Positions 4,079 through 35,820 of a stretch of DNA of 64,000 nt are shown here, in pieces. Numbering within the stretch: the stretch's first letter is position 1; each line of letters starts with the position of its first letter. The notes beneath the pieces are model-generated. The model ran no database searches, was not told where the DNA came from, and was given only the letters and a program-made list of their open reading frames with translations. The stretch is from Candidatus Uhrbacteria bacterium RIFCSPLOWO2_01_FULL_47_17 (lineage in GTDB: Bacteria > Patescibacteriota > Patescibacteriia > UBA9934 > GWF2-40-263): assembly GCA_001791305.1 (NCBI GenBank), contig MGEI01000005.1, positions 210,698 through 274,697 on the forward strand, read 5' to 3'. Position numbers and translations under genes: made by a program.

Positions 4079-4111
4079 TCCTTTACACACTGAACCCTAA
4101 TCAACATCTGT

Positions 4112-4522: not shown

Positions 4523-4632
4523 ATACTACGGGGAAAACGGGGCGCAAAAACGTCCTGTTTTTTTGTTCCAATGAAAAAGCCCCGACACCCTTACAGCGAT
4601 TTGCTGTTTTGGATGCCGAGGCAAGGTTGAGA

Positions 4633-5490: not shown

Positions 5491-5559
5491 GGGAACTCCC
5501 GTGGTCCGAGTCGGACCGATTGTCTGTTTCAGACCGACTCGGAACCGTTCCTTGTCGAT

Positions 5560-6123: not shown

Positions 6124-6379
6124 GGCCGTCCTTGTGCCGACTCGTCACACGACTGTCGGTTCTGAGAATGTGTTTTCCGATCCTTTCGGAAAAACAGAGA
6201 TTCGTTAAAGGCACGAAGAAGCTTTGAACCGTTGATTTCAAGCCTTTTTCGCATCTTCAACCATTCTTTGTAACGGCTTACTATACCATAAAAATGCCAT
6301 TTTGTCAAGGTATTATGGCCTTTTTCTTGACTTTTTGGCTGTTTTTTCGTGTAATGACAAAGCCATTTGGAGGCATTTC

Positions 6380-6772
6380 ATGAATGACGAGCCGTTTGGG
6401 CATCTCACGCACCTCAAGCAATTTCGTGACGAAGAAAAATCCTATCAGGAGCTTTTGCGAACCGCCCGTCGTATTGTTCGCGAGCGACAATTCTCTGGCA
6501 CGTTCCTTGCAGAAGATCTTTTGGCACGCGACCGTATATTTGGGTTGCTCAAAAAGCAAAACTTTAAAAACATGGATGAAACGCCCGTGAAATGGGAACG
6601 TCTCAAAGCCTTGTACGAAAAGCCGCAGACAGACGATCAAAAAAATTTAGAAACACTGTTGCTCATTCGATCCTTTTTGTTTTATGCCGTGGAACGTCAT
6701 GATGTCTATCGAACACCACTTGTTGGATCTCCACATGCGGTTCAGGGCTTTGCCTTCAGTAAAACCGGTTAA
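6380..6772 (+). CDS. Hypothetical protein
   Basis: Start moved to the ATG at 6380, preceded by GGAGG 6 nt upstream. A TTGACT..TGTAAT promoter-like pair lies at 6318-6350. No recognisable domain. Confidence 0.5.
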   Translation: MNDEPFGHLTHLKQFRDEEKSYQELLRTARRIVRERQFSGTFLAEDLLARDRIFGLLKKQNFKNMDETPVKWERLKALYEKPQTDDQKNLETLLLIRSFLFYAVERHDVYRTPLVGSPHAVQGFAFSKTG

Positions 6773-6877
6773 ACAAATAGCACATCGTCTTCCTGCCACC
6801 CTTCGCTGAAGCTTCGGGTGGCTTTTCTTTTTCCAGAAAATAAAAAATCGAAGGGGGTTAGCCTTCGACAGAGAATC

Positions 6878-9313: not shown

Positions 9314-9619
9314 GATAGGTCTCCTCTGTGCGGCTTTTGCCGTGTGGTTGACTGAACAAAACGCCGCACACGATTTTATGTGTTCTACGGAACTTCCGCA
9401 GAAAAAAATCGTCTACGCTACGTTTGGTATTCCTCGTTAGGTACGATTTTGCACCGTGAAGAATACGCTTGTTATACCTGATTTATTCTATTTTGTCAAT
9501 CGTTATTGGCAAAATTTGTTGATAAAGTAAAACAAAAATCGATCAAGTGATCGATTTGTTATGAAACACTGACGTTTATAGATCCCCTCCCCCTTCGAGG
9601 GGGAGGGTTAGGGAGGTGG

Positions 9620-15021: not shown

Positions 15022-15097
15022 GGCCACGTGGCGAAGTGGTTAACGCGGGGGTCTGCAAAACCTCTATGCATCGGTTCAACTCCGATCGTGGCCTCCA
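15022..15097 (+). tRNA. tRNA-Cys (anticodon GCA)
   Basis: Hand-folded cloverleaf. Acceptor GGCCACG/CGTGGCC, anticodon stem GGGGT/ACCTC with loop CTGCAAA, T-arm ATCGG-TTCAACT-CCGAT, U73 discriminator typical of tRNA-Cys, and an encoded CCA. Confidence 0.8.
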
Positions 15098-15145
15098 AAA
15101 AAACAATCAAACAAAAAACCCGAGCATAAGCTCGAGTTTTTTGTT

Positions 15146-15805
15146 TTAAAATACCTCAACGGTTGCGTACTTAAGTCCAAATTTTTTGGCTTGTTTAATA
15201 TCTTTCATCCAAAAGTCCATACGTTTCGTATAACGAGCGTTCATACGGTCTTGCACTGTAAAGATACGATCGCCATACAATTCTGGAATACGCACACGTG
15301 TTCCAAGTGGCAAAAAGTTTGCCGCAACAACGTCTTCCTGGTTACGTTCACAAACGTCCATACCGGACGCGGTGATACACGGCGTATCATCTGTTTGTGC
15401 AGGATCCGATGTATAAGCCGTCATTGGAACCGTAAACGTTTTACGTGGACGGGCATCTTCAGAAACCGGAAGGTTTCCAAAGGATTTTGTTTCGTTTTCC
15501 ATGGCGTCAATCATGAGTGCCACGGTTTTATGATCAATAGGCTTTTGGTCCGTAAGCATGTCTGCGTTCGCCATGGCTGGGAACAAAACATAGGTACCTA
15601 CCGTTGCCACAAAGGCAATAACAGAGAGATCAAGCGAATATTTGCGAACATGAACCATTTTTTGAATCAAAGTAAGGGAAATTTTGGATGTGAAAAAAGT
15701 AACGGTGCGTACAAACCCAAAATCGTTATCCCAAATGTAGGCAAACGCCGATTTGGTTTTCTTCTGAATTGTATTCAAACCCAATGTTTTGCGTTTATTT
15801 GTCAT
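15146..15805 (-). CDS. 3D-domain protein (MltA/YabE-like cell-wall hydrolase domain), membrane-anchored
   Basis: C-terminal 'MTAYTSDPAQTDDTPCITASG...VAANFLPLGTRVRIPELYGDRIFTVQDRM' is a 3D (Asp-Asp-Asp) domain. A TM/signal anchor lies upstream. The true start may be the internal Met at 15676. Confidence 0.65.
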   Translation of the reverse strand: MTNKRKTLGLNTIQKKTKSAFAYIWDNDFGFVRTVTFFTSKISLTLIQKMVHVRKYSLDLSVIAFVATVGTYVLFPAMANADMLTDQKPIDHKTVALMIDAMENETKSFGNLPVSEDARPRKTFTVPMTAYTSDPAQTDDTPCITASGMDVCERNQEDVVAANFLPLGTRVRIPELYGDRIFTVQDRMNARYTKRMDFWMKDIKQAKKFGLKYATVEVF

Positions 15806-15975
15806 ACCCGGCGTGTCCTTCCTCCTACAGAAGAGACGCTGGGCAGGGCAAATATGTTTCCATCAAAAAACCCTGTTTCCAGAGTGGCAATAGAATACCA
15901 CAAAAATGGGTTTTTGTCAATGGTTTCAGACCGATTTTTTCTTATTTTTTAGCTCAACAAAGCTAAATCACCCCT

Positions 15976-18900
15976 GTGGATGTTTTGTGGATTCTTTTGT
16001 CGAAAATCAAGAAATCAGGTATTCTATCCTCACTTATGTCCAAACACATTTATAACAAGCAAAGCTGGAAAAAAACTGGCAATTCCTCCTCATTTCTCGC
16101 CAAAACATGGAGGGCTTTTCGACGAACTCCTGTTGGAAAAAATCTTTGGTTGATCCTTCTCTTTTTTATCATCCTTGGCACCCTTTTTGTCTTGGCTCTC
16201 ATTGCGGTCGCAAGCCGAGATCTTCCAAGCCCAAGCAGTCTCACGGAACGAAAAATTTCGCAGACGACCAAAATCTATGATCGCACAGGTGAACACCTAT
16301 TGTATGAAATTGCTGGAAACCAGAACCGGACGTTGAAGAACTTTCAGTCTGGTTTTTGTGATCCACAAGATCCAAAACTGAGCTTAGATCCAAAAGGCAT
16401 TCCGCTTTACGCTGTTCACGCAACCATTTCCGCAGAGGATCGAAATTTTTGTGAGCACATTGGATTTGATTTTAAAGGATTTTCACGAGCGGTCGTTTCA
16501 AATCTTTTTGGGAAGCGGGTTGGTGGATCAACACTCACGCAACAGCTTGTTAAAAATGCCATTCTCTCCAACGAGAAAACACTGACGCGTAAAATAAAAG
16601 AGTTGATCCTGTCTCTTGGACTTGAACAAAAGTATTCAAAAGATGAAATCCTTCAAATTTATTTCAACGAAATTCCGTATGGATCGAGTTACTATGGTAT
16701 CGAAGCCGCGTCACAAAATTATTTTGAGAAATCAGTAAATGAGTTAACGGTCGCACAAGCCGCCACGCTTGCCGCTTTACCAAAAGCTCCAACAACCTAC
16801 TTAAATAATCCAGACAAACTGCAAGCACGTCGTGATTACATTTTGAGTGAAATGTTAAAGTTGGGATTTATTGATAAAACATCATTCGAAAATGCAAAAT
16901 CGGAAAAAACGCCTGTAACGGTTCAGGTGACAAACATTACGGCACCACATTTTGTCATGGACGTAAAAGCAGCTCTTGAAGATACGTATGGTCGTCGTAC
17001 GGTTGAAGAAGGTGGAATGAAGGTCATCACAACACTTGATTTTGATTTACAAAAAATTGCGGAGGAAGAGGTAAAAAGCGGAGTAGAAGCAAGATCCGAA
17101 CAATACGGTTTCTCAAACGCCTCCCTTGTTGCAGAAGATCCAAAAACCGGACAGATTTTGGCCATGGTCGGTTCAAAAGATTTTTTTGATAAAAAAATTG
17201 ATGGACAGGTCAACGTCTCAACACGTCACAGACAACCCGGTTCCAGCTTTAAACCAATCGTCTACACAAAAGCGTTTGAAATGGGTTATACCCCGAACAC
17301 TGTTTTATGGGATGTCACAACCAGCTTCCCAACAGATGTTGGAGAAGCTTACACCCCAAATAACTACGATCTAAAAGTACGCGGACCAATCAAACTGCGC
17401 GACGCTCTCCAATTTTCTTTAAATATTCCTGCGGTGAAAACGGTTTATCTTGTCGGTGTTGAAAATGCCCTCGATTTCGCCACACTGCTTGGATATGATT
17501 CGTTTGCAAACCACGCAAACTTTGGATTATCCATCGTCCTTGGTGGTGGTGAAGTTCGCTTAATAGACCATGTTCATGCATACGCTACGTTCGCAAACAA
17601 CGGTAAGGCGAACGAGCAAGTTTCCATTTTACGTGTGGAAGATTCAAATGGAAGTGTTCTTGAAGAGTGGAAACAAAAAGACGCGAAGGAGGTTGTGAAG
17701 GAAAATGCCACACACATGATTTCACATGTGTTGTCAGATAATAATGCGCGTATTCCAGTATTTGGAGCAAAAAGTTCTTTGCAGTTAGGCGACAGACCCG
17801 TTGCCGCAAAATCCGGAACAACAAATGATTATCATGATGCGTGGCTTATGGGATACACTCCTTCTCTTGCCGCAGGTGTTTGGGTTGGAAATAACAACAA
17901 TACTTCCATGAAAAGTAAGGCGGACGGTTCTATTGTTGCTGGCCCAATTTGGAACGCGTTTATGAAACGCGCTCTTGAAGGAAAACCAATCGAACCCTTC
18001 CCAACTCCCGACATTCGTCCAACCGGAAAAATGGTTCTTGATGGTTCCCTCGGCGCTCAGACTCTTTTGATTGACCGAGCGAGCGGAAAACTCGCGACAG
18101 AATTTACCCCAGATTCGTTTAAAGAAACACGTGTCTATGGTGGCTATCACGAAATTCTTCACTTTGTGATTCCATCAGATCCACAAGGTCCAATTCCATC
18201 TGAACCAGAAAAAGATCCTCACTACGCAGCATGGGAAACAGGGGTTCAAACATGGCTCACAAAACGTCAGCAGGAAACAGGTGTTCAACTCCTGACAACA
18301 AATCCACCAACAGAACAGGACGATCTTCACATTCCATCCAATAAGCCAACCGTTCAAATTCAGTTTCCTTCAAATAACTCTGTTTTGGATGGAAGGACTC
18401 TTCCAATTTCTGTTTCTGCTTCTGCTCCTCGTGGTGTTGTGAGAATCGAATATTTTTTGGACGACTTATTTATTGGTGCATCAAGTAGTTCCCCTTTTGA
18501 CACAACACTCACCATCCCATCGACAACCCCGAAAGGGATTCACTCTCTGAAAGCCGTCGCCTATGACAATATCGACAACAGTTCCTCAGACACAGTCAGT
18601 ATTCAAACAACCACGGAAGGTCAGGAAAATATTCTCAGCTTAATCGACCCGAAAAACGGACAAGTGATAGATAAAACAGCTGGAACATATACGGTTGTCG
18701 CTTCCATAAAAAATCCACAAAGTATAAGTACCGTAACCATCTTTGCCGAACAAATTGGCACGCAAGCGAAATCGATTATTGGTCAATTCTCAAACCCAAC
18801 ATCACCGTTTGCAACGGTTGATTGGAAAATTCCAGACTCTGGAAAATGGGTTTTATCAGCAAATGCAAAATTAAAAAATGCGTTTGATCTTGTCACAACA

Positions 18901-20423: not shown

Positions 20424-21839
20424 CTACGCTGTGTATAAACGTTGTTTGATGAGTTCAAGGTCGTGTTGCAACTTTTCATCTTCTGTTAAACACTCCGAAA
20501 TTTTCTCATACGCATGCATAGCAGTTGTGTGATCACGCCCACCGAGTTCGTTTCCGATAGACGGATAACTCGATTTCATTTCTTCACGCATGAGGTACAT
20601 GATGATTTGGCGTGGAAACGCGAGTTTTTTCTCACGACTTTTGCCAAGTAAGTCTTCAATACGGATATCAAAGTAGATAGATACCGTATGAATAAGTTGT
20701 TTTGGAGTAACATTTTTTTTGAGGGATGAGGGCTGGAAGCTTGTGAGGATTGGCTTGACGGTGTCGAGTGTTGGTCGAACGTTTTTGAATTGATGAAAGG
20801 CAATAACCTTGTTTAGAGCTCCTTCGAGTTCTCGCACGTTTGTTTGAACAACGGATGCGATGTGATTCAAGATGTCATGTTCAATTTGATAAACTTTTTC
20901 ACGACATTTTGATTCAAGAATGGCAACGCGCGTTTCAAAGTCTGGGGATCCAACATCAGCCATCATTCCTTGTTCCAGACGAGAGGAGAGTCGAGCTTCG
21001 AGGGAAGGAATAGCTTTTGGAGGGCGATCTGAAGAGAAAACAAGTTGTTTGTTATTTTGGAAGAGTTGGTTAAACGTATGAAAAAATTCTTCCTGTGTGC
21101 TTTCTTTCCCGCCCAAAAACTGAATATCGTCGATAAGGAGCGTATCAACCATGCGGTAGCGATTTTTAAAATCGTTCATTTTTCCTGTGCGAAGCGCAGA
21201 AACATAGTCGTTTGTGAATCTTTCACACGTGATGTAGAGAATGCGAAGGTTTGGATTTTTTCGAAGTAACTCATTTCCGATTGCCTGCAACAAATGGGTT
21301 TTTCCGAGTCCCACACCACCATAAATATAGAGTGGGTTATAAACGCCTCCTGGTTGGCTCGCGACCGCTTGAGCTGCTGCATGTGCAAGCTCATTTTGTT
21401 TTCCAACGATAAACGTTTCAAAACAGTATTTTCCGTTTAAAGAAAACTCCCCCGTTCTATTTTCTTGAACGTCTGAAGTATGTTGCTCAACAAAAAAGTC
21501 TTTCGGTGTTTGTACAGGCTGTTCTTGTTGGTGAAAAACAGGTTGTGGTTCCGGTTTTCCTGCAACAGGAACCATTTGTGCAGGAGCTTGGCGTGTTTCA
21601 ACACGAAACGTGATGTGCTTGATGTTTCCACCCGTGTGTTCCAAGACAGATTTTACGATTTCACGCGCGTGTTTTTTTTCAAGCCAGTTCTGCGTGAACA
21701 TGTTTGGGACACCAACAATAAGAGAGTGTTCTGAAATTTCAGAAATGAATGTACTTTTGAACCAAGTTGTAAAATTGGCTTTGCTGAGCGATAACTCAAG
21801 TTCCCCAAGAACAGCTTGCCAAAGTTCGATCGTGTTCAT
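20424..21839 (-). CDS. dnaA: Chromosomal replication initiator protein DnaA
   Basis: 471 aa, Walker A 'GGVGLGKTHLLQAIG', and C-terminal DNA-binding domain (HTTAMHAYEKI). Confidence 0.95.
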   Translation of the reverse strand: MNTIELWQAVLGELELSLSKANFTTWFKSTFISEISEHSLIVGVPNMFTQNWLEKKHAREIVKSVLEHTGGNIKHITFRVETRQAPAQMVPVAGKPEPQPVFHQQEQPVQTPKDFFVEQHTSDVQENRTGEFSLNGKYCFETFIVGKQNELAHAAAQAVASQPGGVYNPLYIYGGVGLGKTHLLQAIGNELLRKNPNLRILYITCERFTNDYVSALRTGKMNDFKNRYRMVDTLLIDDIQFLGGKESTQEEFFHTFNQLFQNNKQLVFSSDRPPKAIPSLEARLSSRLEQGMMADVGSPDFETRVAILESKCREKVYQIEHDILNHIASVVQTNVRELEGALNKVIAFHQFKNVRPTLDTVKPILTSFQPSSLKKNVTPKQLIHTVSIYFDIRIEDLLGKSREKKLAFPRQIIMYLMREEMKSSYPSIGNELGGRDHTTAMHAYEKISECLTEDEKLQHDLELIKQRLYTA

Positions 21840-24067: not shown

Positions 24068-25360
24068 TTACATCTTCACCATCACGTTCTTCACAAGTTC
24101 AATCACCTTTCTGTTCAAGACAACTTGTTCGAAGTACTGTCGATATTCCGGAGTGTAAATACGTTTTTTGTCTTCCGCGTCTTCATAACGCGCCGCGACG
24201 TCGTCGAGTTCTTTGTCGAGCTCTTCGTCGCTTACAGTAAGGTTCTCGCGTTTTGCAATTTCACGCATCGCAATCGCGACCTTGATGCGCATAAGGGCTT
24301 GTGGAGTGAAGTCGAGTTTCACTTGCACTAGCGTCTTTTCCAAACTTTGAATGTATTTTTCAAAGTCCATACCCTGTTCTTCTACACGGCCCTTCAATTC
24401 ACGAAGCATCTTTTCGATTTCTTCATTCAAGAGAAGATCAGGAATGTTTTCAAACTGTGTTTTGTTTGCAATCAGCTCAAGAGCTTCTTTTTCTTGGCGC
24501 ATTTGTTCTTCGCGAATTTTCTCATCGAGAAGATTTTTGTGAATGAGTTCTTTCATCATCGCAAAATCTTTAAGTCCGAGTGATTGTGCGAACGAGTCGT
24601 CCATTTGTGGTGGCTCGAGATGAAATAATTCTTTTAAGACAACTTCGAAGTCGATATCTTGTCCTGCCAAAAATGCTTGCGCGTGATCTGCCGGAAACGC
24701 AAGAGTAAAAGTTTTTGCATCACCCTCTTTTAATCCAATCAACTGTTCTTTGAATCCAGGAATATAATATTCTTCTGCGAGATATACGGCGTGATTTGGT
24801 GATTGTCCACCTTCGATCGGAACTCCGTCTTTTTTCATGTCCATCGAAACAACCGCTTTATCTGTTGCACTCACGATCGAACCAGATGCGGCACGAACTT
24901 CTTTTGTTTGCATGCGCGTGAGATCTTTGAGCGCGAGTTCAACATCATGGTCAGCAACTTCTGGAACTTTTCCTTGGACAGACAAACTTTTAAAATCTGC
25001 GAGTTCTTTGACAGCCGGCATGCGTGTTACTTCTGCGGTAAACACCAGTTCATTTCCTGGCGCCATTTTTTCAACATCAATTTTTGGAGAGCCGACGGTG
25101 TCGATTTCGTTATCTAAAAGTGCTTTCACAAAAAGACTTCGCACGATTTTTTCAAGCGCCTCTTCCATGATTTTTGTTTCCCCAACGCGTTGTTTCACAA
25201 TCTCATAACCAGCCTTTCCTGGGCGGAAACCTGGAATGGTTGAGTGTTCAGAAATGTGTTCAGCGGCAGCCTCAAGAAACGGAGTTTGTTCTTCAACAGA
25301 AACGGTAAAGGTGATTTTCACGAGTCCTTTTTCTTGTTCTTCGACAGTAATATTTGGCAT
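24068..25360 (-). CDS. tig: Trigger factor
   Basis: 'MPNITVEEQEKGLVKITFTVSVEE...IPGFRPGKA' N-terminal ribosome-binding domain signature. Start taken at the internal Met. Confidence 0.85.
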   Translation of the reverse strand: MPNITVEEQEKGLVKITFTVSVEEQTPFLEAAAEHISEHSTIPGFRPGKAGYEIVKQRVGETKIMEEALEKIVRSLFVKALLDNEIDTVGSPKIDVEKMAPGNELVFTAEVTRMPAVKELADFKSLSVQGKVPEVADHDVELALKDLTRMQTKEVRAASGSIVSATDKAVVSMDMKKDGVPIEGGQSPNHAVYLAEEYYIPGFKEQLIGLKEGDAKTFTLAFPADHAQAFLAGQDIDFEVVLKELFHLEPPQMDDSFAQSLGLKDFAMMKELIHKNLLDEKIREEQMRQEKEALELIANKTQFENIPDLLLNEEIEKMLRELKGRVEEQGMDFEKYIQSLEKTLVQVKLDFTPQALMRIKVAIAMREIAKRENLTVSDEELDKELDDVAARYEDAEDKKRIYTPEYRQYFEQVVLNRKVIELVKNVMVKM

Positions 25361-25463
25361 AAAGATGGTTTGAATTTCTGCGAAAGTGTAGCGAATAAAC
25401 AAAATTGCGTCAATGTTGTGGAGTGGTGTTCGTTTCAATAAAAAAATCGCCAGGATTTGGCGA

Positions 25464-27464
25464 TTAAGACTTTTTGACCATGAGCACGGTGCTCACCTGA
25501 GCGGCTTTCTTAAACATATCATCCGGCGTGCTCGGCCCCTGGGTTTCATCCAAGAGGACGTGTGCGACACGCTGTGAGATTTCACGCAAGGCAGCATGGC
25601 GGCGAACCGCATCTGTGTATCCGTCAAAGAGTGTGTGACCCAAGTTGAGCGTGATGATGGTGTAGCCGTCTCCGCGCTCAATCCAGCTCGTTTTGGCATT
25701 TGCGTCCGGCGTGCCACGCATCGTCGTTGAGGAGAGTTCGAACAAGTGATCTTCAACAATGAATTGCCGATCTGTGGTCTCCCCGGTTTTCGGTGATTCA
25801 CCTTCATCCTGTTCTCGAATGCGAATGGTACAGTTTGCCGTGTCACTCGGATTGTTTTTGTTTACAACCGTGATGTCGAAGTCTCCCGCTTTGTCGCTCG
25901 AGAGAATTTCAGCTTCAGTTACATCTTTCGAAATCTTGATTTCCCCTCCCCATTTCTGGTAGGTCCATACAAGATCCGCTCCGGCGGGCACTTCATTAAG
26001 TCGGACAAATCGACGGTCATGGAATCCCATCCGAACGGTTGGTTTCCCAAACCGCATCGGAATCGTTGCGAAGATGTTGATCGTGATGATGGCGCTTGGC
26101 GCATCCTTCACGTCCCCCATCATACTCACACGCAGCGTGTGCCCTTCACCAATATCACGGGCTGTGTAGGTCACGCGTGTTCCGGTGTTGGTATCCAAAC
26201 TGCCGCCACTTGCCTTTGCATCCCAATGGTATGGACGCCCCGGTCGCGGATCCTTGATTTCGAACACGTAGCTACGTCCAGGAACCAGGTCCACGCAATG
26301 GCGATTCAGAGCGATTTCGATCACCTTTTGCTTGATCGGTGCTTCGCCCGTTGCTTCGTGAATATTTCGACACACATCTGCAAGCAGAGTTGCGTCATCG
26401 GTCGTCACGATTTCTTCTGAGCGCATCCCGAGTTCGTTCTCGACGAGCGGAACGATTTCAAGACGCAGGAACTTGAGGAGCGCTTCACAGAAGTGCTCAT
26501 CTTCAAGCATGTTCGCGTTGAATTCCTTGCGGCTATTCACAGCGAACTTATTTGCCTTCGGAATGTCGATGCTGCCCACAACGTACGGGTGACGCAACAC
26601 GATGTCAATTTCTCGCGCAAGTGTGCGATACCGCGGGTCGTGTGTGAACGCACGCGCAAACGTGGTCCAAGAACACACGGGGCCCATCGCACCCATCATC
26701 ACGAAATCTGCGCTGCGGTCACTTTGCTGAACCACATACAGATTCCACTCAACGTCTCCAAGATGTTTCACGGGCGTTGTGGTACGTCCCTCAATCGGCT
26801 TGCCTTTCAGCTCGCGCGGCTTGAGTTCGAATGTCTGTACTCCGCCCGTCTCATCCACGGTTTCCACACGAATCTTTCGTGCAATGTGTGGGGAGAGTTT
26901 TTCGGCGAGGCCTTCAATCAATCGTTCCGCTGTCCGTTGTGCCTGCTGCGACTTGGTGCCAACCGTGAGGTCGCGCCAGGTCACAATCGTTCCACTCGTT
27001 TTCAGCAGATGATCGAATGAGAGCTTCTTTGCGGTCCACGCGAGCGTTGTATTTCGTTCAAACCACGCGTCATGCATGCGTTCTTTTGTGAGAACGATTT
27101 CAAACGCTGTCTGATCTGCAGCTTTTGTGATCGTGTGACACTCAACCGCGTGGTTGATGAAGCCGATGCGTCCGGTACCGTTGCGGCCCTTTTTCGAATC
27201 GTCTTCACGTGCAGCGCTGTCACACAAATTGGTATAGGCTTCCCGACCGCGCTCATCCATGCCCTGTCCGTTGTCGCGGAATTGAACACAGCTGATTTCA
27301 CGTTTCGGATCCGTGTAGAAACGAATAGTGAATTCCGTCGCTCCCCAGTCGAAGGCGTTTTCGGCGATTTGCACCACCGCATCCGCAAATCCTGTGAACC
27401 CATCGGTCAACTTGTCGAGAATCGATTTGTCAACGCGATTTCGCCTTACATGTGGTACTGCCAT
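25464..27464 (-). CDS. GHKL-superfamily (Bergerat-fold) ATPase-domain protein with a ~500-aa uncharacterised C-terminal region
   Basis: The N-terminus carries all three Bergerat motifs: 'IAENAFDWGATE' (ExxNAxD N-box), 'FRDNGQGMD' (DxGxG G1-box) and 'KKGRNGTGRIGF' (GxxGxG G2-box). Start is immediately adjacent to the stop of the upstream gene (27464/27465), with GGAGG embedded in that gene's end. Confidence 0.65.
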   Translation of the reverse strand: MAVPHVRRNRVDKSILDKLTDGFTGFADAVVQIAENAFDWGATEFTIRFYTDPKREISCVQFRDNGQGMDERGREAYTNLCDSAAREDDSKKGRNGTGRIGFINHAVECHTITKAADQTAFEIVLTKERMHDAWFERNTTLAWTAKKLSFDHLLKTSGTIVTWRDLTVGTKSQQAQRTAERLIEGLAEKLSPHIARKIRVETVDETGGVQTFELKPRELKGKPIEGRTTTPVKHLGDVEWNLYVVQQSDRSADFVMMGAMGPVCSWTTFARAFTHDPRYRTLAREIDIVLRHPYVVGSIDIPKANKFAVNSRKEFNANMLEDEHFCEALLKFLRLEIVPLVENELGMRSEEIVTTDDATLLADVCRNIHEATGEAPIKQKVIEIALNRHCVDLVPGRSYVFEIKDPRPGRPYHWDAKASGGSLDTNTGTRVTYTARDIGEGHTLRVSMMGDVKDAPSAIITINIFATIPMRFGKPTVRMGFHDRRFVRLNEVPAGADLVWTYQKWGGEIKISKDVTEAEILSSDKAGDFDITVVNKNNPSDTANCTIRIREQDEGESPKTGETTDRQFIVEDHLFELSSTTMRGTPDANAKTSWIERGDGYTIITLNLGHTLFDGYTDAVRRHAALREISQRVAHVLLDETQGPSTPDDMFKKAAQVSTVLMVKKS

Positions 27465-28916
27465 TTACTTTCCTCCATTGGATTTGTTGAATTCTGACGC
27501 GACTCCGACCATGGAGCGTGTCCCCTGAACAATCTCCCACGCCGCTTTTGAGCCCATCAAGTGATGGAGCCCTTCATGTGCAACGAAGAGTTCTGCAAGT
27601 TCTGGACCAAGAATCGGCGTGATCGTTTTCCGAATGAGATCCGGATTCAGCTCACTGAGCGCAACCAGCACTTTCCGCAGATGGACGATCGCGGTTCGAA
27701 CGTCTTCAATCTGTTCCATTGTGACACGTTCATCTTTTCGAAGGTGCCACGTTTTCGGATCAAGACAGTGCTCCACGCCACCAATCACGGAACCAATCGG
27801 TTCATAGATCGGAGTTACGGATGGTGTCGCAACCGTTTCTGTTCGTGCCTTGAGTCGTGCGACCAAAGCTTCGAGTCCATCGATCACAACATCTTCGAAC
27901 GAATCTTTGGATGGCGTGATTGGTTTTGGTTCAGAAACGACGGGGGTCGCAACCGGAGTCGCAACAGGTTCCACTTTCTTTTGGACAGAAGGCTTCGCTT
28001 TTGATTGTTTTGCGACAGGCTTCACATCCATGAGGTCTTTGAGAGGGACTTCCACTTCCCAAATTCCCGCATCTTCCTTTTTGCGATACGTCTTGCGGTG
28101 CTCGTCAAACGTTTCCAAGAGCGCGGGATACGATCGCTCGACAAGCGCGCGCAGAATTCCTTCGACGGTTTCCGGATAACAACTTGTCTTTTCTTTTTCA
28201 GGCTTCCATTCAAGGAGTCGAGAAATGGTGTTCTCTTTGATTCCCGTAAGGCTTTCAATTTTGACAGCCGTGTGACCGGGATACCGATGAAGAAATTCTT
28301 GGAGCGCGGATGCAAAATCCGTGACTCCAGGAAAAAATTCTTGCGAGTCTCCGCCAAGGATGGCTCGACACATCAAGATGAACTGTGCATCTTCAAGACA
28401 CGAGATCTTGAGAAAGCCTCGCATGAGATTGCTCAAGAGGATTTTCAACATCTCCACACCGGGTTTGTTGATTCCTCTGTTCCAACCACTCAACGTCCCT
28501 GACGGAACACCCATCTGAAGCGCGAGGTAGAAATTTCCTCCGTACTCTTTGATGATTTTGCGCAAGCGATTCACGACGTCTTCACGGTGAATATCACGAT
28601 CGAAATCAATGTGTTCACGCAGATCAGGACACTCGTTCCACAACTGACGTTTTGCTTCACAAACCATCCAGGCGTCGATATCAACACCGGTTGTTTCGAG
28701 AATGGATTGAAGACCGGTTGTGACAAGATCAATCGTTGGTGTGTTTGCAAGCCAGGCAGGAAGACTCTTTCTGCCTCGAATGCCGTGTTTTTTGAACACA
28801 GCCTGCGCTTCTTCAACGGTTTTGAGTCCGTTGTGCTGCATCCACATTTCCCAAAGCACGGCGAGGGTGATGTCTTTTCCCCAAACGGCTGTTGGAAGTT
28901 TCTTGAGCTTTTCCAT
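27465..28916 (-). CDS. Hypothetical protein with two XRE-like helix-turn-helix segments, first gene of the GHKL operon
   Basis: 'FYLALQMGVPSGTLSGWNRGINKPGVEMLKILL' and 'AVKIESLTGIKENTISRLLEWKPEK' resemble Cro/C1-type HTH. A Pro/Val/Ala/Thr-rich linker (VEPVATPVATPVVSEPKPITP) follows. Confidence 0.5.
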   Translation of the reverse strand: MEKLKKLPTAVWGKDITLAVLWEMWMQHNGLKTVEEAQAVFKKHGIRGRKSLPAWLANTPTIDLVTTGLQSILETTGVDIDAWMVCEAKRQLWNECPDLREHIDFDRDIHREDVVNRLRKIIKEYGGNFYLALQMGVPSGTLSGWNRGINKPGVEMLKILLSNLMRGFLKISCLEDAQFILMCRAILGGDSQEFFPGVTDFASALQEFLHRYPGHTAVKIESLTGIKENTISRLLEWKPEKEKTSCYPETVEGILRALVERSYPALLETFDEHRKTYRKKEDAGIWEVEVPLKDLMDVKPVAKQSKAKPSVQKKVEPVATPVATPVVSEPKPITPSKDSFEDVVIDGLEALVARLKARTETVATPSVTPIYEPIGSVIGGVEHCLDPKTWHLRKDERVTMEQIEDVRTAIVHLRKVLVALSELNPDLIRKTITPILGPELAELFVAHEGLHHLMGSKAAWEIVQGTRSMVGVASEFNKSNGGK

Positions 28917-28928
28917 GGATCCTCCGGC

Positions 28929-28965
28929 TGAAAAGAACCGTTCTGAAATACGGCCATTCCGTACA
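28929..28965. promoter_or_regulatory. Nested palindrome (candidate operator) in the divergent promoter region
   Basis: TTCTGAAATACGGccattCCGTAcATTTCAGAA, a near-perfect 13-14 bp inverted repeat immediately upstream of the 27465..28916 gene start. A TTGACA..TACATT promoter-like pair at ~29015-29045 faces the opposite gene. Confidence 0.45.
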
Positions 28966-29105
28966 TTTCAGAAGGGGTCAACCTATCAATTTAAGCCTGT
29001 TATGTCAAGGTTCTATTGACAGATCCGGCTCGCGTGGTACATTTTTACATCCTTTTTTCGAATGACGAAGAAAGGTGTTTGTTCAGACAACCAAGGAGTG
29101 TCTCA

Positions 29106-30298
29106 TGGGAGATGCAGCGACGGTACGTGCAGCTTTATCGGGCTCAGATCAAAAAGACCCGAAAATCATCTATCTTTCACCCGTTCTTGCCAACGTCTGG
29201 CTTGCGCTTCAGGTGGAATACAGCAAGCGGAATGCTCCGATTCCGGCAGATGTTGCTGCGGAGATCGTGCGAAAAAATTCGAAGAACACGAAAAATCCGT
29301 TCTCAACGCTCAACAACCTCGACAAGCGAGGGGTGTTGCAAATAGCGTCAGGCAGCTCAAGTCGTCGTACACGCATTCCTCTCACAATCGGGATTGTCAT
29401 CACAACCGGAAAAGCTCCGAATGTGAAACAGATCTGGCCTGTGGAAGAAGCGGTGACTAAATTGCCGAAGCTGCCTACCGAGCCGAAGACGGAAGCCAAA
29501 GTGAAGAAACCTCCAGCCCCGAAGCCTCCTGCTCTCACAGATCTTCTCGGAGAGCCTGTGTGGGTGTATCCAAAAACACATAAGCCTGTGATGGTACAGG
29601 TGACAACACTCGAACTCTACAAAGCCCTTCTTGAAGGGGCTCGAAAAGACGAGTTTGCCCCAAAGACGACGAGTGAAATAGTTGTATATATCGCACACAT
29701 GAATGAGAAAAAAGACAGCTTGATTCATGCGATCAGTCGCATGGAAAAACAAGGATTGTTTCTTCATGTGAGCGGAAAGAAGACCAGGGTGGATCCGGCA
29801 AAGCGCGTGCTTGTCTGCCGACCTGTTCAGGTGTTCCGACATGCGAGTTGGACTTCGGGAGAAACAGTAACGTTCATTCCTCAAGAATGTGAAGCGTGTG
29901 TTGATACACGCATGCTCGCACAAGCGCAAGAAACGGTTCAAGAGCCGGTTACAAAGGTTGAAGCGCAATTGGAACACGCTCCCTCGAGCGCCCTGCCTAC
30001 AAAGGCTGAACTTGCAGTGAGGCTTACAGATAAGCAGCAGGAAGCGGAACAGCTCGCGCAGACCTGGCGTGCAGAAGAAGAAACTCTCGTGCAAGAGTTC
30101 GCGACAATCCAGGAAGAGATCGCGGATCTCGACCGGCGCCGTCATGCGCGCATGCAGCGGTTTCAAGAAGTACAAGTTGCTCTTGCCGCAAATCAGATTG
30201 GAAAACCGGAAGGCTTGGATGCACTGCGTCATGAGATCGAAGATCTTGGCATGCTCGTTTTGAACTACGATCGGCTCGTCCCGCATTTGCAGCGGTGA
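29106..30298 (+). CDS. Hypothetical protein with a C-terminal coiled coil
   Basis: Start chosen at the ATG preceded by AAGGAG (29106) rather than track start 29075. Lys/Pro-rich linker (KVKKPPAPKPPA). Heptad-like C-terminus (QQEAEQLAQTWRAEEETLVQEFATIQEEIADLDRRR). Confidence 0.5.
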
Positions 30299-30384
30299 GA
30301 AATACTTACATCGGAATGAACCCCGGTGTTTTTTTATTGAAATTTTTGTATGAAAAAACCACCCGTAGCTTTAGCGAAGGGTGG

Positions 30385-31923
30385 TTAGAGATCTTCGTCG
30401 TCATTTGCGGCTTTTTCTTTGCGTTCGGCAGCAGCAGTCTCTTTGTAGATGGCTTGTCCATCCAGAATGGCCGCGCGAATGGCGTCCGCAAACGGACTGT
30501 CCTGAAGAAACTGCCGCGCAAGAGCAAGACATTCTGGCTTTGGCTTCCAAAGCCAGCTGAACTTGAAGCGTTCCATGTCGTACAGGTTCTTGAGCTGATC
30601 AGGAACGAGCGCGAATGCGTCCGCATCCCGGGGCGAGATGAGCCCGCTTGCAAGGACGCTTCCCACAAGGGTTTTTTTCCCTTTGTATCCACGAAACATG
30701 TTGGATTCCGGTTTGTTACACACGTCAGAGGCAATCATGAACAGTCGCGCATGAGCATCCTTTCGCGAACATTTGTCCTGAAACAAATCTTCTGGATTCA
30801 GTTTACGCACTTTGAGAAGCAGGGCTTCTGCAAGTGGCAAGGCTGTCGCGAGAAAATCTTTCAGAGCCTTCGGACGTTCCGGGAAGGTTGTTTGGTACAA
30901 GTTCATGTTGCCAATCCGTGCGCTTTCTTCGCTGCGCGGATTCACAAAGCTCAATTCCCTTTTCGCATGGTCGACTTGACGATCCACCTCTGCAGGGATT
31001 GGAAGGGCAAACAAGGAACAGTATCCCTTGATGCTTGCCGCGCGATCCCAAAGTCCAGAGGCTTCTTCGTTTGTCAGGCGGTAATCCGCTTTGTGCTGCT
31101 CGATGCGTGCACCGATTGTTGTCGCTTGTTCATCGAGTTCGTTGAGTCGAACAAGAGACGAACGCGCGAGACGAATCAGTGATTCGAGTTCGCTCACATC
31201 TTCCGGCTGGTTGAGAGGAAGACATTTTTGCATGCCATCGCGCAAGATGCTGAACTTCGCATCTAGGCGATGTTTTTGCATGAGGTCATCCGTCAGGCTT
31301 TTGCGTGCATGGAGCACGTCTTGAAACTCGGAACGATCGCGACTGAACGCTGTGTAGATTTGACGAATACGATGCGGAAGTCCGATCGCTTGTTCGTACA
31401 GTTCTCGCACAAGAGTTCGCACGCGATCTTCAAGCTCGGCGTCCACACGCTGCTTGATCATCTGTTCTGTGATGATGGGAGTTGCCAATGCTGGCGCTGA
31501 GATCCTCGAGACAACCTCGGGCTGCTTCGCGCGTTCAAGATCTGTCATCTTGCACGAAAGATCGGTGACACGCGTTCGGTATCCCTCGATTGCTTTCCAC
31601 GCTTCAACAGAATCTCCAGAGATGACCGATTGAATGAGGGCTGCAAGAGAGAATGTTGGACCGCATACACCAAGCTCGGCGGCGAAATCACGATCACGTT
31701 CGATCGTTGAGAGATCGAGCAGAAACTGATCAACACGCACAAAGCGTTCTCGTTTCTTTTCGAGAAGTTCAAGCTGAACCTGTAGATTGGTGATTTGACG
31801 CTCAAGGTTTTTGCGCGCAACGCGTTCTTGCTGACCTTCTTGGTCATAGATCGCGATCATCTCATTCAGTGTTCGAATCTCAGCGGTGAGTTTCTGAATG
31901 CGAATTGTTTCTGGCGAACTCAT
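30385..31923 (-). CDS. Hypothetical coiled-coil protein (512 aa)
   Basis: Long ORF, N-terminal coiled-coil (LTAEIRTLNEMIAIYDQEGQQERVARKNLERQITNLQVQLELLEKKRE). No nucleotide-binding motif seen. Confidence 0.5.
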   Translation of the reverse strand: MSSPETIRIQKLTAEIRTLNEMIAIYDQEGQQERVARKNLERQITNLQVQLELLEKKRERFVRVDQFLLDLSTIERDRDFAAELGVCGPTFSLAALIQSVISGDSVEAWKAIEGYRTRVTDLSCKMTDLERAKQPEVVSRISAPALATPIITEQMIKQRVDAELEDRVRTLVRELYEQAIGLPHRIRQIYTAFSRDRSEFQDVLHARKSLTDDLMQKHRLDAKFSILRDGMQKCLPLNQPEDVSELESLIRLARSSLVRLNELDEQATTIGARIEQHKADYRLTNEEASGLWDRAASIKGYCSLFALPIPAEVDRQVDHAKRELSFVNPRSEESARIGNMNLYQTTFPERPKALKDFLATALPLAEALLLKVRKLNPEDLFQDKCSRKDAHARLFMIASDVCNKPESNMFRGYKGKKTLVGSVLASGLISPRDADAFALVPDQLKNLYDMERFKFSWLWKPKPECLALARQFLQDSPFADAIRAAILDGQAIYKETAAAERKEKAANDDEDL

Positions 31924-32055
31924 GTTAAAGCCCCATTTCCGACACTTGCCGGAGCAACGAGCATATCAGATAAAGGCGTTTTGTCAAGAATTCGTTGACA
32001 AAGTTCCCCTATTTTGTTAGTTTTCTTTCTCCGCTTCTGTGGAGAAAGGACACAC

Positions 32056-33054
32056 ATGCGTGATTACGATTATCCTGCAAAGAATACGGTTAGGGACGCA
32101 TGGATGCGTTTTTTACCGGAGTTCTTTCAAGATACGCAGGCCCACGGGCTTTATCTTCCAGGACACCAAAATCTGGAATTTCCTTGTTATGAACAGAAGC
32201 GATTGTCAAAAGATCGACTGATAGGGATCGAACATGATCCGAGTCGGTTTGCTGCGGTGAAACGTAAAGCAAATGGCATTCGCTTGATTCATGGAAATGT
32301 GAGGGATGCTGTTTGTGAAATAGAACAACAGCATATTCCGCGTCTGCGTTTTGCCAATCTGGACTTTGAAGGGTTGTACAGCCGTTTGATCAGTGAGATT
32401 CTTTCTCTTTTCCGCGTTTTTCCTTCAACGTCTGGTGGATATTTGTGTGTGACGAGTTTTAGTTCACGCGACGAAGAAACACTCCTGCAAGGAATGATTC
32501 ATACGTCCAAGTTTTATTCCGGACGTGCCGAGCGTACCGAATTCATGAGCGACTACGGTCGCATGGTGAATCGATATGTCGCATTAAAGCATATCCTGAA
32601 AGATCCTCGTGCATCTGACCATAGTCACCTTACTCGCGAACTTGGATTTCTTTGGTGGATGACGCTTGTGATGGGAGTTATGCAATTCCCTGGCGACACA
32701 TACGGAATCATTGATGAGGCGTATCTTACAGAGCTTGATGCAATTTTAGAACGGATTGACGAACGATCGCGTGCGCGCAGCGAAGGCACGCTTGATTTTC
32801 ACTTGGTCTATGATACTGAACTTGCAACACGGATGTGCGCTCATACTTCGTGTCTGTGGCCATCTGGTTTTCAGCATTTTATTTACTACACAGCACCGGG
32901 TCTCCCGATGCATGTGTGGATGTTGAAAATCGATTTCATCAATACGAAAAAGAAGCCGAGCCATCAAGACGTTCTTGAACAGGTTTGGCAGTTTGCAACG
33001 CGCACCCCGCTTATCTACGTTGATAAGATGGGTACGGCGCATAGCCTGGTGTGA
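32056..33054 (+). CDS. Hypothetical protein. The Rossmann/methyltransferase-like signals are weak.
   Basis: Start at 32056 preceded by GGAGAAAGG. Segments 'LIGIEHDP', 'IHGNVRD', 'ANLDFEG' are loosely reminiscent of class I MTase strands but not diagnostic. Confidence 0.45.
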   Translation: MRDYDYPAKNTVRDAWMRFLPEFFQDTQAHGLYLPGHQNLEFPCYEQKRLSKDRLIGIEHDPSRFAAVKRKANGIRLIHGNVRDAVCEIEQQHIPRLRFANLDFEGLYSRLISEILSLFRVFPSTSGGYLCVTSFSSRDEETLLQGMIHTSKFYSGRAERTEFMSDYGRMVNRYVALKHILKDPRASDHSHLTRELGFLWWMTLVMGVMQFPGDTYGIIDEAYLTELDAILERIDERSRARSEGTLDFHLVYDTELATRMCAHTSCLWPSGFQHFIYYTAPGLPMHVWMLKIDFINTKKKPSHQDVLEQVWQFATRTPLIYVDKMGTAHSLV

Positions 33055-33064
33055 GGAGATTTAA

Positions 33065-33739
33065 ATGAGCGTCTCAAAATTCCTGATCGAACTCGGAAAA
33101 GCAGCGATTGAACTTGGAACACGGCTCGACATGCAAGACGCGCGACTCGATTCGCTCGGGGCACGTCGTGAGCCGCCGAAGGAAGGGGGCGAAATTACGG
33201 ATGTGATTCGCGATGCGATCATCAGGTCTCGCGCGGAATGTTCAGAAGAAGATTGGTTGCGACTGAACGGTCGGCGCGATCAAGAGTGTGTTCGTTACGG
33301 AATCACGACCGAGTCGGCCGCCGCAATTCTCGCCGGCGCGACGAAGCGTGAAAAGAAGAACGGAAACGGAAATGGCCACGCGGCTATTGTCCCCACTTCG
33401 GAGACGGTGGCTGAGACGCTGTCGTCGCCCGTTCCAAAGAGCGGCGCAAAAAAAGTTCGCAACATGTTTGATCCAAACGAGTGGGGCGAGGTCTCGCTCG
33501 AGAAGGGTGGTTCACGGAGTACGGCTCCTGCAGAACCGTTTCGCAAAGCAAATCAGCAAGACACCGACATCGTCATTCTCGTGCATCAGCTTGCTCTCGA
33601 GCATGGGAAAGATTGGAGTGAAGTGCGTCAGCAACTCTGTTGCACACGTCGTCTGACACGTCAGCAAGTTGCGGCGATCCTTGCGGAACATACGAAAGAA
33701 AAACAGAATAAGTTCACCGCGAACGCCGCACACGCTTAA
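33065..33739 (+). CDS. Hypothetical protein
   Basis: 224-aa ORF tightly following the previous gene (10-nt gap). No domain recognised. Confidence 0.45.
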   Translation: MSVSKFLIELGKAAIELGTRLDMQDARLDSLGARREPPKEGGEITDVIRDAIIRSRAECSEEDWLRLNGRRDQECVRYGITTESAAAILAGATKREKKNGNGNGHAAIVPTSETVAETLSSPVPKSGAKKVRNMFDPNEWGEVSLEKGGSRSTAPAEPFRKANQQDTDIVILVHQLALEHGKDWSEVRQQLCCTRRLTRQQVAAILAEHTKEKQNKFTANAAHA

Positions 33740-33828: not shown

Positions 33829-35820
33829 CTACACAAGGAAGCCAACAATGAGTAACGCGACAATGTTCAAAATTTTGATCATTGGGTTAATTGCTGGTCC
33901 TGCTGTGTCTTTGTATGGATCACCGACGGTATCTCCTGTCACCGCTGCTTTGTGGGCATTGGATCCTTTTCCGCCGTAGTTTCCAGACTCAATATATTTT
34001 TTTGCATTGTCCCAAGCTCCTCCGCCTGTTGTCATCGAAATCGCCATGAAGAGTCCTGTGACGATGGAACCGATCAAGAGTCCTCCGAGCGCCTTTGGTC
34101 CAAAGGCGAATCCAACAACGATTGGGGCAAACACAGCAAGCAATGACGGAGCGATCATGAAATTGATCGCAGCTTTTGTCACAATGTCTACAGCCTTTGC
34201 GTAGTCTGGCTTTCCGGTTCCATCCATAATTCCCGGGATCTCACGGAATTGGCGGCGAACTTCTTCGACAACGGATCCAGCAGCTTTTCCAACGGCTTCC
34301 ATCGCGAGTGCGGCAAATAAGTACGTAACGATTCCTCCAAGAAACAAACCGGAGAGCACATAAGGATCGCTAACCTCGAACACAATATGAGAACCTTTTG
34401 CGGCGAGCGCATGCACATAGTCTCCGAAGAGCACGACCGTTGCGAGCCCAGCTGACCCAATCGCGTATGCTTTGGTCACAGCTTTTGTGGTGTTTCCAAC
34501 AGCGTCGAGTGGATCTGTCACGTTGCGAACGTCTTCTCCAAGATCTGCCATTTCCGCAATTCCACCTGCGTTATCTGTGATTGGACCAAAGGCGTCAATC
34601 GCAACGACAATTCCTGTAAGAGACAACATCGCCATTGCGGCAACGGCTACGCCGTAAAGTCCAGCGAGGGAGTTCGCGATCAAGATTCCAAAGACAATCG
34701 TGAGAACAGGATACGCCGTTGATTTCATGGAGAGCGCGAGCCCCGCAATGATGTTTGTACCGTGTCCGGATTCAGATGCGGCTGCAAGATCTTTTACAGG
34801 TTGATGATTTGTTCCTGTGTAATATTCTGTGATGAGAATCATGGCTGCAGTAATCACGAGTCCAAGAAGGGCTGAGTAGTACACGTTCATGACGTTTAAT
34901 CCTGCAACACCTGTGAGCATGTACTTTGTGACAGGATAAAAACCGATTGCGGCGAGTGCGCCTGCGACAAATAATCCTTTATAAAGTGCGTTCATGATGT
35001 TTCCATCTTTTCCGATTTTGATGAACAACGTTCCAACAATCGAACAAACGATGGCAATCGCTCCAAGGGCGATTGGATACAAAATAACTTGTGGGTTGTT
35101 TGCAAATAAAAGTGCTCCGAGCAACATAGCTGCAACAGATGTAACAGCATAGGTCTCGAAAAGATCCGCGGCCATTCCTGCACAGTCTCCAACGTTGTCT
35201 CCAACGTTGTCTGCAATAACCGCTGGATTGCGTGGGTCATCTTCTGGAATTCCCGCTTCTGTTTTTCCAACCAAGTCCGCACCAACGTCAGCGGCTTTGG
35301 TAAAAATTCCTCCACCCAAACGAGCGAAGACAGAAATAAGAGATCCTCCAAATCCGAGTCCGATAAGGGCTTGGACATCTTGTGTCACCATGTAAAAGAG
35401 CGTGACACCAAGGAGGGCGAGTCCAACTACAAAGAATCCGGTGACAACTCCGCCACGTACAGCAACGTCCATGGCCGCAGATAATCCACTTTTTGCGGCT
35501 TCTGTTGTACGAACGTTTGCGCGTACAGAAACGGACATTCCAATGTAGCCAGCAACTCCAGAGAGAACAGCACCGATTAAAAATCCGATCGCGAGGGTCC
35601 ATCCTAAAGCAAAGCCAAGGATCACAAAAACGACAGCACCGATCATACCGATCATTTTATACTGGCGCGCCATGTATGCGTTTGCCCCTTCTTGAATCGC
35701 AAGAGCGATTCCCTTCATTTTTCCTTCACCTGCCGGGAGCTTTAAAATCCATTGAGTAAGATAGGCTCCATAAATGAGGGCAAGCAAGCTCGCCCCGATC
35801 GCGTACATCGAAATATTCAT
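33829..35820 (-). CDS. hppA: Membrane-bound proton-translocating pyrophosphatase (H+-PPase)
   Basis: 663 aa, many TM helices, and conserved 'GDNVGDCAG' / 'DNVGDNVGD' and '[14 protein letters not shown]' motifs. Confidence 0.9.

Follow-up and report, generated by a model that had tools for sequence, protein, structure and literature searches.

A six-gene cassette between tig and an H+-pyrophosphatase gene

The 64,000-nucleotide stretch analyzed here, called the window throughout, is part of contig MGEI01000005.1 from Candidatus Uhrbacteria bacterium RIFCSPLOWO2_01_FULL_47_17. Between tig (24068-25438) and the gene for an H+-pyrophosphatase (PPase; 33829-35820), it holds an unannotated cassette of six genes, g1 to g6, which spans 8.3 kb (25464-33739) and lies approximately 3.6 kb from dnaA; the genes rnpA-rpmH-dnaA-dnaN come after the site. 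An initial annotation, made from the letters alone, had singled out a two-gene operon of a GHKL ATPase (g1) and a helix-turn-helix (HTH) protein (g2) as a candidate conflict locus. The coordinates and lengths it gave for the two proteins (666 and 483 residues) are correct, but the unit comprises six genes rather than two. They form two divergent modules, with g3 pointing away from g2-g1 and g4 pointing away from g5-g6, and promoter-like sites rated as good occur in both divergent regions (g2/g3 and g4/g5). The features of the cassette are as follows:

25445-25465, minus strand: terminator-like hairpin and T-run that overlaps the g1 stop and divides the cassette from tig
25464-27464, minus strand: g1, GHKL ATPase of 666 residues
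27465-28916, minus strand: g2, all-helical HTH-type protein of 483 residues
28917-29104, no strand assigned: g2/g3 divergent control region with back-to-back -35 boxes and palindromes
29075-30298, plus strand: g3, approximately 397-407 residues, likely start at the ATG at 29105
30385-31923, minus strand: g4, 512 residues, largely coiled-coil
32014-33054, plus strand: g5, approximately 332 residues, likely start at the ATG at 32056
33065-33739, plus strand: g6, 224 residues

None of the six genes has a paralog elsewhere in the window, and g1 is the only one with any profile match. An Rfam search over 24-36 kb of the window returned no RNA family. A 100% identical protein (P0001) comes from Candidatus Uhrbacteria bacterium RIFCSPHIGHO2_02_FULL_47_44, in the Candidate Phyla Radiation (CPR)/Patescibacteria.

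Cassette alleles do not follow the history of their flanks

We recovered further loci through g1 homologs, a GTDB scan and g5 homologs in metagenomes. Every related Uhrbacteria-type locus with enough flank has the order tig-cassette-PPase, down to 28-33% g1 identity. The initial annotation had reasoned that conserved synteny with tig would mark its gene pair as ordinary core genes, and, by position, this synteny is present wherever a locus reaches far enough. However, the cassette behaves unlike a core block, in that its alleles are exchanged or maintained across lineages, and the idea of a conflict locus therefore survives the conserved position. A comparison of the window with two related loci, L004 and L019, gave these amino acid identities:

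tig: window versus L004, 90%; L019 versus L004, 96%; L019 versus window, 90%
PPase: window versus L004, 95%; L019 versus L004, 97%; L019 versus window, 95%
M23 peptidase: window versus L004, 79%; L019 versus L004, 93%; L019 versus window, 81%
g1: window versus L004, 47%; L019 versus L004, 48%; L019 versus window, 82%
g2: window versus L004, 41%; L019 versus L004, 41%; L019 versus window, 70%
g3: window versus L004, 32%; L019 versus L004, 24%; L019 versus window, 66% and 52% (two partial segments)
g4: window versus L004, 34%; L019 versus L004, 37%; L019 versus window, 66%
g5: window versus L004, 66%; L019 versus L004, 65%; L019 versus window, 77%
g6: absent in L004; L019 versus window, 77%

For DnaA and DnaN, the window and L004 share 94% and 93% identity, respectively. 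Judged by their flanks, L019 and L004 are mutually closest and the window is the outgroup; the L019 cassette nonetheless resembles that of the window, and the cassette phylogeny conflicts with that of the flanks. At the level of DNA, the window and L004 are approximately 80% identical up to the edges of the cassette (25413 and 33707), and exactly there their identity becomes undetectable.

Synonymous sites show how deep the split between alleles is. Between L019 and L004, the number of synonymous substitutions per site (dS) is 0.42-0.62 in the flanks, whereas the proportion of synonymous differences (pS) in the cassette is 0.69-0.77, which is saturated. The alleles must therefore be far older than the divergence of the two genomes, and fast protein evolution alone is insufficient to explain the divergence of the cassette. 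For the same reason, we reject an ordinary conserved core operon: flanks at a dS of 0.4-0.6 enclose a cassette with saturated synonymous sites. Across 48 genome pairs, g1 identity and PPase identity do not correlate (Spearman rho 0.12, p 0.41); at L023, for example, PPase is 83-84% identical and g1 only 22-25%. Within an allele lineage, the ratio of nonsynonymous to synonymous substitution rates (dN/dS, omega) is 0.09-0.27, indicating purifying selection on all cassette genes.

With conserved flanks, incongruent alleles and an excess of synonymous divergence, the locus is a variable cassette at a conserved hotspot. The simplest reading is whole-cassette replacement via recombination in the conserved flanks or a long-lived balanced polymorphism, and both imply diversifying or frequency-dependent selection on a co-adapted set of genes. 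The cassette also exceeds its flanks in guanine-plus-cytosine (GC) content by approximately 2 to 13 points at every locus compared (the window at 25464-33739, L001, L004, L005, L007, L014, L016, L017 and L018), and its GC content tracks that of the host genome. This excess could stem from amino acid composition or, if the site is a hotspot of recombination, from GC-biased gene conversion.

The six genes travel together

The six-gene unit is kept in Uhrbacteria-type loci, except that L004 lacks g6, L014 lacks g5-g6 and some alleles have inserted genes. At L017 and L018, the two modules occur in inverted order and each is internally intact; the six genes travel together through rearrangements. 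The L017 cassette, a distant copy, adjoins tRNA-Gln and a large serine recombinase of 401 residues (Resolvase, Recombinase and Zn_ribbon_recom domains), both at 4982-6372, and GC content steps from 0.44 to 0.60 at the tRNA. The recombinase, which the tRNA separates from the cassette, has flank-like GC content. A more remote relative of g1 (approximately 20% identity) lies beside a suf operon at L028 (9354-22019), in a block with seven further open reading frames (ORFs) without a Pfam match, including a small upstream ORF and a divergent one of 997 residues. This unrelated context means that the ATPase family reaches other gene neighborhoods. No relatives of the cassette were found in 50,697 phage records, 72,556 plasmids or IMG/VR.

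Several neighbors of these loci were recorded along the way. The rearranged L018 cassette is closely followed, on its downstream side, by a MazE/PIN toxin-antitoxin pair (15856-16425), and L007 carries a reverse-transcriptase gene (RVT_1, 330 residues; 15055-16047) approximately 3 kb past tig. Two metagenome-assembled genomes labeled "uncultured Gammaproteobacteria" at NCBI (L011, CAYMBX010000008.1; L012, CAYJWY010000021.1) have the Uhrbacteria-type order and cassette, and this label is probably wrong.

g1 is a GHKL ATPase with a transducer-like domain

In Pfam, residues 26-122 of g1 match HATPase_c_3 (PF13589) with 34 bits against a cut-off of 25 (E 3.5e-8), and nothing else scores above threshold; there is no HisKA, MutL_C or HSP90 match. 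The initial annotation was thus right that g1 is no ordinary sensor kinase, and the HisKA, MutL or Hsp90 dimerization domain that it said would point to a housekeeping protein was not found by Pfam in the C-terminus. It had also described the C-terminal ~500 residues as lacking a recognizable fold, which the structural model contradicts. An AlphaFold2 (AF2) model built on 13 homologs (predicted local distance difference test, pLDDT, 78) gives a GHKL domain (~1-175), a transducer-like middle domain (~176-376) of the MORC/MutL/Hsp90 type, two immunoglobulin (Ig)-like sandwiches (~385-550) and a small α/β domain (565-662) with a conserved h-N-h-x-H-P motif. Structure comparison matches the model to Hsp90, MORC, SMCHD1 and MutL over 220-260 residues; a fold search of BFVD gave only domain-level matches, to rIIA, topoisomerase II, Hsp90 and BIG2. 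The second domain packs on the GHKL domain in the GHL/MORC-type module seen in MutL, Hsp90, GyrB and MORC. Because these structural neighbors are GHL ATPases, we read g1 as a GHKL domain plus a transducer-like domain and not as a kinase. By sequence, its closest relatives in the PDB are MORC2 and PMS/MutL.

We considered and rejected two more familiar identities. A sensor histidine kinase is excluded by the lack of HisKA/DHp, an HATPase_c score of 16.6 bits against a cut-off of 26.4 and the GHL ATPases among the neighbors. For MutL, TIGR00585 scores 12.3 bits against a cut-off of 180, Pfam finds no MutL_C and the C-terminus is Ig-like.

The nucleotide-binding residues of g1 are intact. N36, the DxGxG motif (D64/G66/G68), the GxxGxG lid (G93/G96/G98) and G158-T159 are all present. 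An exhaustive HMMER search recovered 184 cluster representatives at E<1e-10, nearly all of 640-720 residues, and the family is sizeable, uniform and unannotated. Among the 138 full-length representatives, these residues are kept in 113-134, with the DxGxG and lid residues conserved in 119-134. The initial annotation had identified three GHKL motifs; DxGxG and GxxGxG stand, while the "ExxNAxD (IAENAFD)" motif was mis-assigned. Its glutamate lies one residue before the motif I asparagine (N-1). The canonical general base lies at N-4, and this position in g1 is a glutamine, Q32; in a profile alignment with the PDB, E35 and N39 of MORC2 align with Q32 and N36 of g1, respectively. N39 of MORC2 is needed for ATP binding and dimerization (PMC5811534), and the motif I glutamate of a GHKL-Shedu protein is the residue mutated to abolish hydrolysis (PMC12137116).

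The glutamate expected four residues before the motif I asparagine for hydrolysis is thus absent from g1, and Q32 is invariant among 13 close relatives. Across the family, 68 of the 138 representatives have glutamate at N-4 and 63 have glutamine. The glutamine is paired with a glutamate at N-1 in 51 of 63 cases, whereas glutamate at N-4 goes with a residue other than glutamate at N-1 in 66 of 68. From these motifs, g1 is predicted to bind ATP, and its hydrolysis could be either slow or carried out through a relocated base.

Constraint is uneven along the protein. It is strongest in the ATPase and middle domains (omega 0.05-0.06 in the ATPase part) and weakest in the second Ig-like and C-terminal domains (0.17-0.18). 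Broad g1 alignments were too divergent for a pattern-based search for loci, and a profile search that included distant members, run against a word-indexed database, returned only the same 13 proteins. The Ig-like domains (~385-552) also match giant proteins (P0066, P0077 and others; 1.4-5.5 thousand residues) in which as many as 20-21 repeats stand in tandem, and the same domain family is therefore present in large multi-repeat proteins.

g2 is coupled to g1 and carries probable HTH regions

The initial annotation's observation that g2 abuts g1 is confirmed: the g2 stop (TAA) directly precedes the g1 ATG, with GGAGG 8 nt upstream of that ATG, and g2 is translationally coupled to g1. The two genes are adjacent in the 12 loci compared by gene coordinates, with a gap or overlap of at most 11 nt in eight of them, and g2 orthologs lie upstream of g1 at all loci examined.

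Two XRE-like HTH segments had been proposed for g2. A profile search of the PDB supports one of them, matching residues 122-168 to an XRE-type protein (E 0.0012). The other is matched to HipB (206-240) with an E of only 0.2, and Pfam HTH_3 stays below threshold at 13.9 bits against 23, being found in five of 14 orthologs (best E 0.0096). We regard these matches as weak but concordant evidence for lambda-repressor/XRE-like HTH regions, supported at ~128-165 and probable at ~217-236. A disordered linker rich in P, V and A (~300-340) follows, and then a conserved helical C-terminal domain. The AF2 model of g2 is poor (pLDDT 47) and was used cautiously.

Between g2 and g3, a palindrome at 28994-29030 holds the back-to-back -35 boxes. 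The promoter core TGTCAA-N5-CCTTGACA-N12-ATTGATAG is kept in L019 and in the very divergent L004. A second palindrome with 15-nt arms, TTCTGAAAT...ATTTCAGAA, lies in the g2 leader (28935-28979). It is allele-specific, the L004 form being TCTCTGC...GCAGAGA, and is a putative operator. In dnaA, codons 32-37 contain a perfect 16-bp palindrome, TTCTGAAATTTCAGAA (21729-21744), whose 9-nt half-site is that of the g2 leader palindrome, with no other exact copies in the window. Because TTCTGAAATTTCAGAA encodes the repeated peptide ISEISE, the shared half-site may be a coincidence.

g3 to g6 and neighboring features

Orthologs of g3 are present at all loci, as found with a local hidden Markov model. 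The protein starts with a pair of repeated domains, its C-terminal part is a coiled-coil that ends in a conserved NYD motif, and it has no match in Pfam. g4, which is divergent from g5-g6, combines its coiled-coil with a conserved C-terminal globular domain and is preceded by the promoter-like sequence TTGACA-16-TATGCT (31987-31960); a profile search of the PDB gave only coiled-coil noise. Alignment of g3 with g4 by hhalign showed no relation beyond the coiled coil. A winged-helix reading of both proteins came from viewing alignments by eye, and we do not count it as a result.

The most conserved gene of the cassette is g5, at 65-77% identity where g1 to g4 have 24-82%. It has the invariant motifs YLPGxxNxE, GxE and NLDFDG and occurs with g1 at every g5-bearing locus with enough flank. 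It has no sequence match in Pfam or the PDB, and searching all g5 orthologs against Pfam with E up to 10 gave nothing consistent. A Rossmann-type methyltransferase was suggested by motif spacing read by eye, and we make no such claim. g6 is co-oriented with g5 and is missing from the L004 and L014 alleles. No gene of the cassette matches PHROGs, and the extra genes in the alleles of eight related loci have no Pfam domain.

Two observations concern the rest of the window. The listed tig ORF (TTG start at 25438, 456 residues) is approximately 26 codons longer than its orthologs (429-432 residues); translation probably begins near 25360 instead, and a promoter-like site (25413-25385) lies upstream of that point. 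A second stretch of raised GC content (0.51-0.55 versus ~0.45) lies at 4000-9400, with ORFs of 811 residues (6878-9313, minus strand) and 364 residues (4609-5703, plus strand) that have no Pfam match, and may be another variable island.

A possible DNA-directed conflict system

The best explanation of these results is a self-contained cassette, specific to Patescibacteria/Uhrbacteria, whose co-adapted alleles have diverged deeply and pass from one lineage to another through recombination in the flanks. As to its function, we tentatively favor a new GHKL-centered, DNA-directed conflict system (defense, exclusion or self-identity) with recombining alleles at a fixed hotspot. We favor a conflict function on two grounds: alleles at conflict loci typically show this pattern, and GHKL/MORC-like ATPases of prokaryotes are known to take part in restriction-type systems (PMC2292703). 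The pairing of an HTH protein with a GHKL ATPase had already been taken as a sign of conflict; that suggestion survives as a hypothesis, on the evidence of the alleles, which differs from the grounds first given.

In such a system, g2 would bind DNA and recruit or gate g1, and g1, on binding ATP, would pair through its N-termini to form a clamp like those of MORC and MutL. Given the glutamine at the general-base position and the covarying glutamate at N-1, we infer that such a clamp would switch slowly and not work as a motor. Partners might dock on the Ig-like and C-terminal domains of g1, the coiled-coil proteins g3 and g4 could serve as DNA-binding scaffolds that assemble the complex on DNA, and g5 might be an enzymatic modifier or effector. 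The full proposal, a Patescibacteria-specific, multi-protein system for DNA surveillance or self-identity with a MORC-like clamp of the QxxEN rather than ExxxN type, Ig docking, HTH/coiled-coil targeting, a new-fold enzyme in g5 and balanced, recombining alleles at an origin-proximal hotspot, is rather unlikely to be right as a whole.

A number of points weigh against a conflict function. Scanning g1 and g2 against PADLOC-DB 2.0 with E up to 1 found zero families, in line with the earlier failure to match the pair to any named defense system, and g1 has no match above threshold in PADLOC or NCBIfam. Profile scans recognize no nuclease, helicase or methyltransferase in any cassette gene, and the model of g2 is of low confidence. 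There is no signal of positive selection, selection being purifying overall, and differential loss of ancient tandem paralogs could mimic allele exchange. Among the loci retrieved by cassette genes, we saw no empty tig-PPase site and no patchy distribution; universal presence would be atypical of a defense system. Finally, the position near oriC and the many DNA-binding and coiled-coil proteins also fit a function in the nucleoid.

That last point leads to an alternative that we consider unlikely, though less so than any other rival: a lineage-specific housekeeping module that organizes the nucleoid or origin region, in which the g1 clamp, the HTH protein and the coiled-coil proteins compact or segregate the chromosome near oriC. 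The constant position between tig and PPase, ~3.6 kb from dnaA and down to 28% g1 identity, would be natural for such a module, as would purifying selection on all genes, several predicted DNA-binding and coiled-coil proteins and a g1 fold like that of the DNA-compacting MORC and SMCHD1. However, housekeeping chromosome machinery is not expected to occur as deeply divergent alleles in near-identical genomes. Saturated cassette dS against 0.4-0.6 in the flanks, the conflict of phylogenies and the missing correlation with core divergence all speak against it, as does variable gene content, with g6 or g5-g6 missing and extra genes inserted. The cassette also occurs beside a tRNA and recombinase (L017) and in an unrelated neighborhood (L028).

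These last contexts might instead suggest a domesticated or still selfish mobile module: a stretch that regulates or maintains an integrated element, or else an addiction module that persists and spreads through recombination to its own advantage. The GC offset from the flanks at every locus compared, the exchange of alleles, the tRNA-Gln, large serine recombinase and sharp GC step at L017, the likeness of the g2 HTH domains to phage repressors and antitoxins and the MazE/PIN pair beside the L018 cassette are compatible with this origin. Yet the Uhrbacteria loci contain no integrase, no gene for replication, conjugation or virions and no att-like repeat, and the cassette reaches to within ~25 bp of tig on one side and ~90 bp of the PPase gene on the other. 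Searches of phage, plasmid and IMG/VR collections and of PHROGs gave no match, and the L017 recombinase is flank-like in GC content and lies beyond the tRNA. We therefore think a mobile module less probable still than nucleoid organization. A prophage or plasmid as such is rejected, because integrase, att repeats and replication and structural genes are absent from the window cassette and no phage or plasmid relatives were found.

Two further explanations concern the biochemistry of g1. It could be one half of a transcription-regulatory or signaling pair, acting as a kinase or anti-sigma-like switch on the HTH regulator, with the neighboring genes as its regulon. The GHKL superfamily does include protein kinases, and g2 combines HTH domains with a leader whose palindromes vary by allele, but g1 has no HisKA/DHp or receiver domain, HATPase_c stays below threshold, the structural neighbors are GHL ATPases with a transducer domain rather than kinases and the nearest sequence relatives in the PDB are MORC2 and PMS/MutL. 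We judge this pair improbable. The least probable of all is a specialized Hsp90-like chaperone with co-chaperones: g1 itself is rejected as Hsp90/HtpG, as Pfam gives no HSP90 match and the middle and C-terminal dimerization domains of that family were not found.

CPR/Patescibacteria have tiny genomes and few recognized defense systems, and this clade still spends approximately 8 kb on six uncharacterized genes. If the cassette is a conflict system, it would be a new architecture for immunity based on a GHKL/MORC-type ATPase. It would also offer a natural series of glutamate versus glutamine at the catalytic position of a GHL ATPase, together with a well-defined case, from uncultivated episymbionts, of alleles being exchanged at a fixed hotspot. 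Should it be a nucleoid module instead, it would be a bacterial MORC-like chromosome organizer with unusually fast turnover. On either reading, five unannotated protein families gain a testable genomic and evolutionary context.

Comparison with known systems

The prokaryotic MORC/paraMORC systems are linked to superfamily II (SFII) helicases, methylases and Vsr- or restriction endonuclease (RE)-fold endonucleases (PMC2292703), none of which Pfam found in g2 to g6 or in the extra genes of eight loci. Where paraMORC proteins carry a nuclease or TIR domain, the C-terminus of g1 consists of two Ig-like domains and a new α/β domain. Unlike paraMORC, approximately half of the g1 family has glutamine in place of the general-base glutamate, and the cassette is found at a fixed locus within a single CPR clade, whereas paraMORC is sporadic across phyla.

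A GHKL ATPase is also found in a Shedu variant, VcSduA, in which it has a clamp-like middle domain and is proposed to control a defense effector, a likeness to g1 (PMC12137116). However, VcSduA requires its motif I glutamate, E27 (PMC12137116), and it is a single protein fused to a DUF4263 PD-(D/E)xK nuclease. In contrast, g1 has no nuclease domain, belongs to a six-gene set and has no PADLOC match to Shedu.

The eukaryotic MORC2/3 and SMCHD1 are ATP-dependent DNA clamps; g1 differs from them in that it contains no CW domain, coiled-coil insertion or hinge. The equivalent of their catalytic glutamate is a glutamine in g1, its partners are bacterial HTH proteins and DNA clamping by g1 would be by analogy only.

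Allelic cassettes at fixed sites are familiar from the specificity genes of type I restriction-modification systems, agr groups and defense-island hotspots. Like these, the cassette lies between conserved flanks, and its co-adapted alleles are deeply divergent, disagree with the genome tree and each evolve under purifying selection. It differs from them in its unrelated gene content and in that all six genes, including the ATPase, are replaced together.

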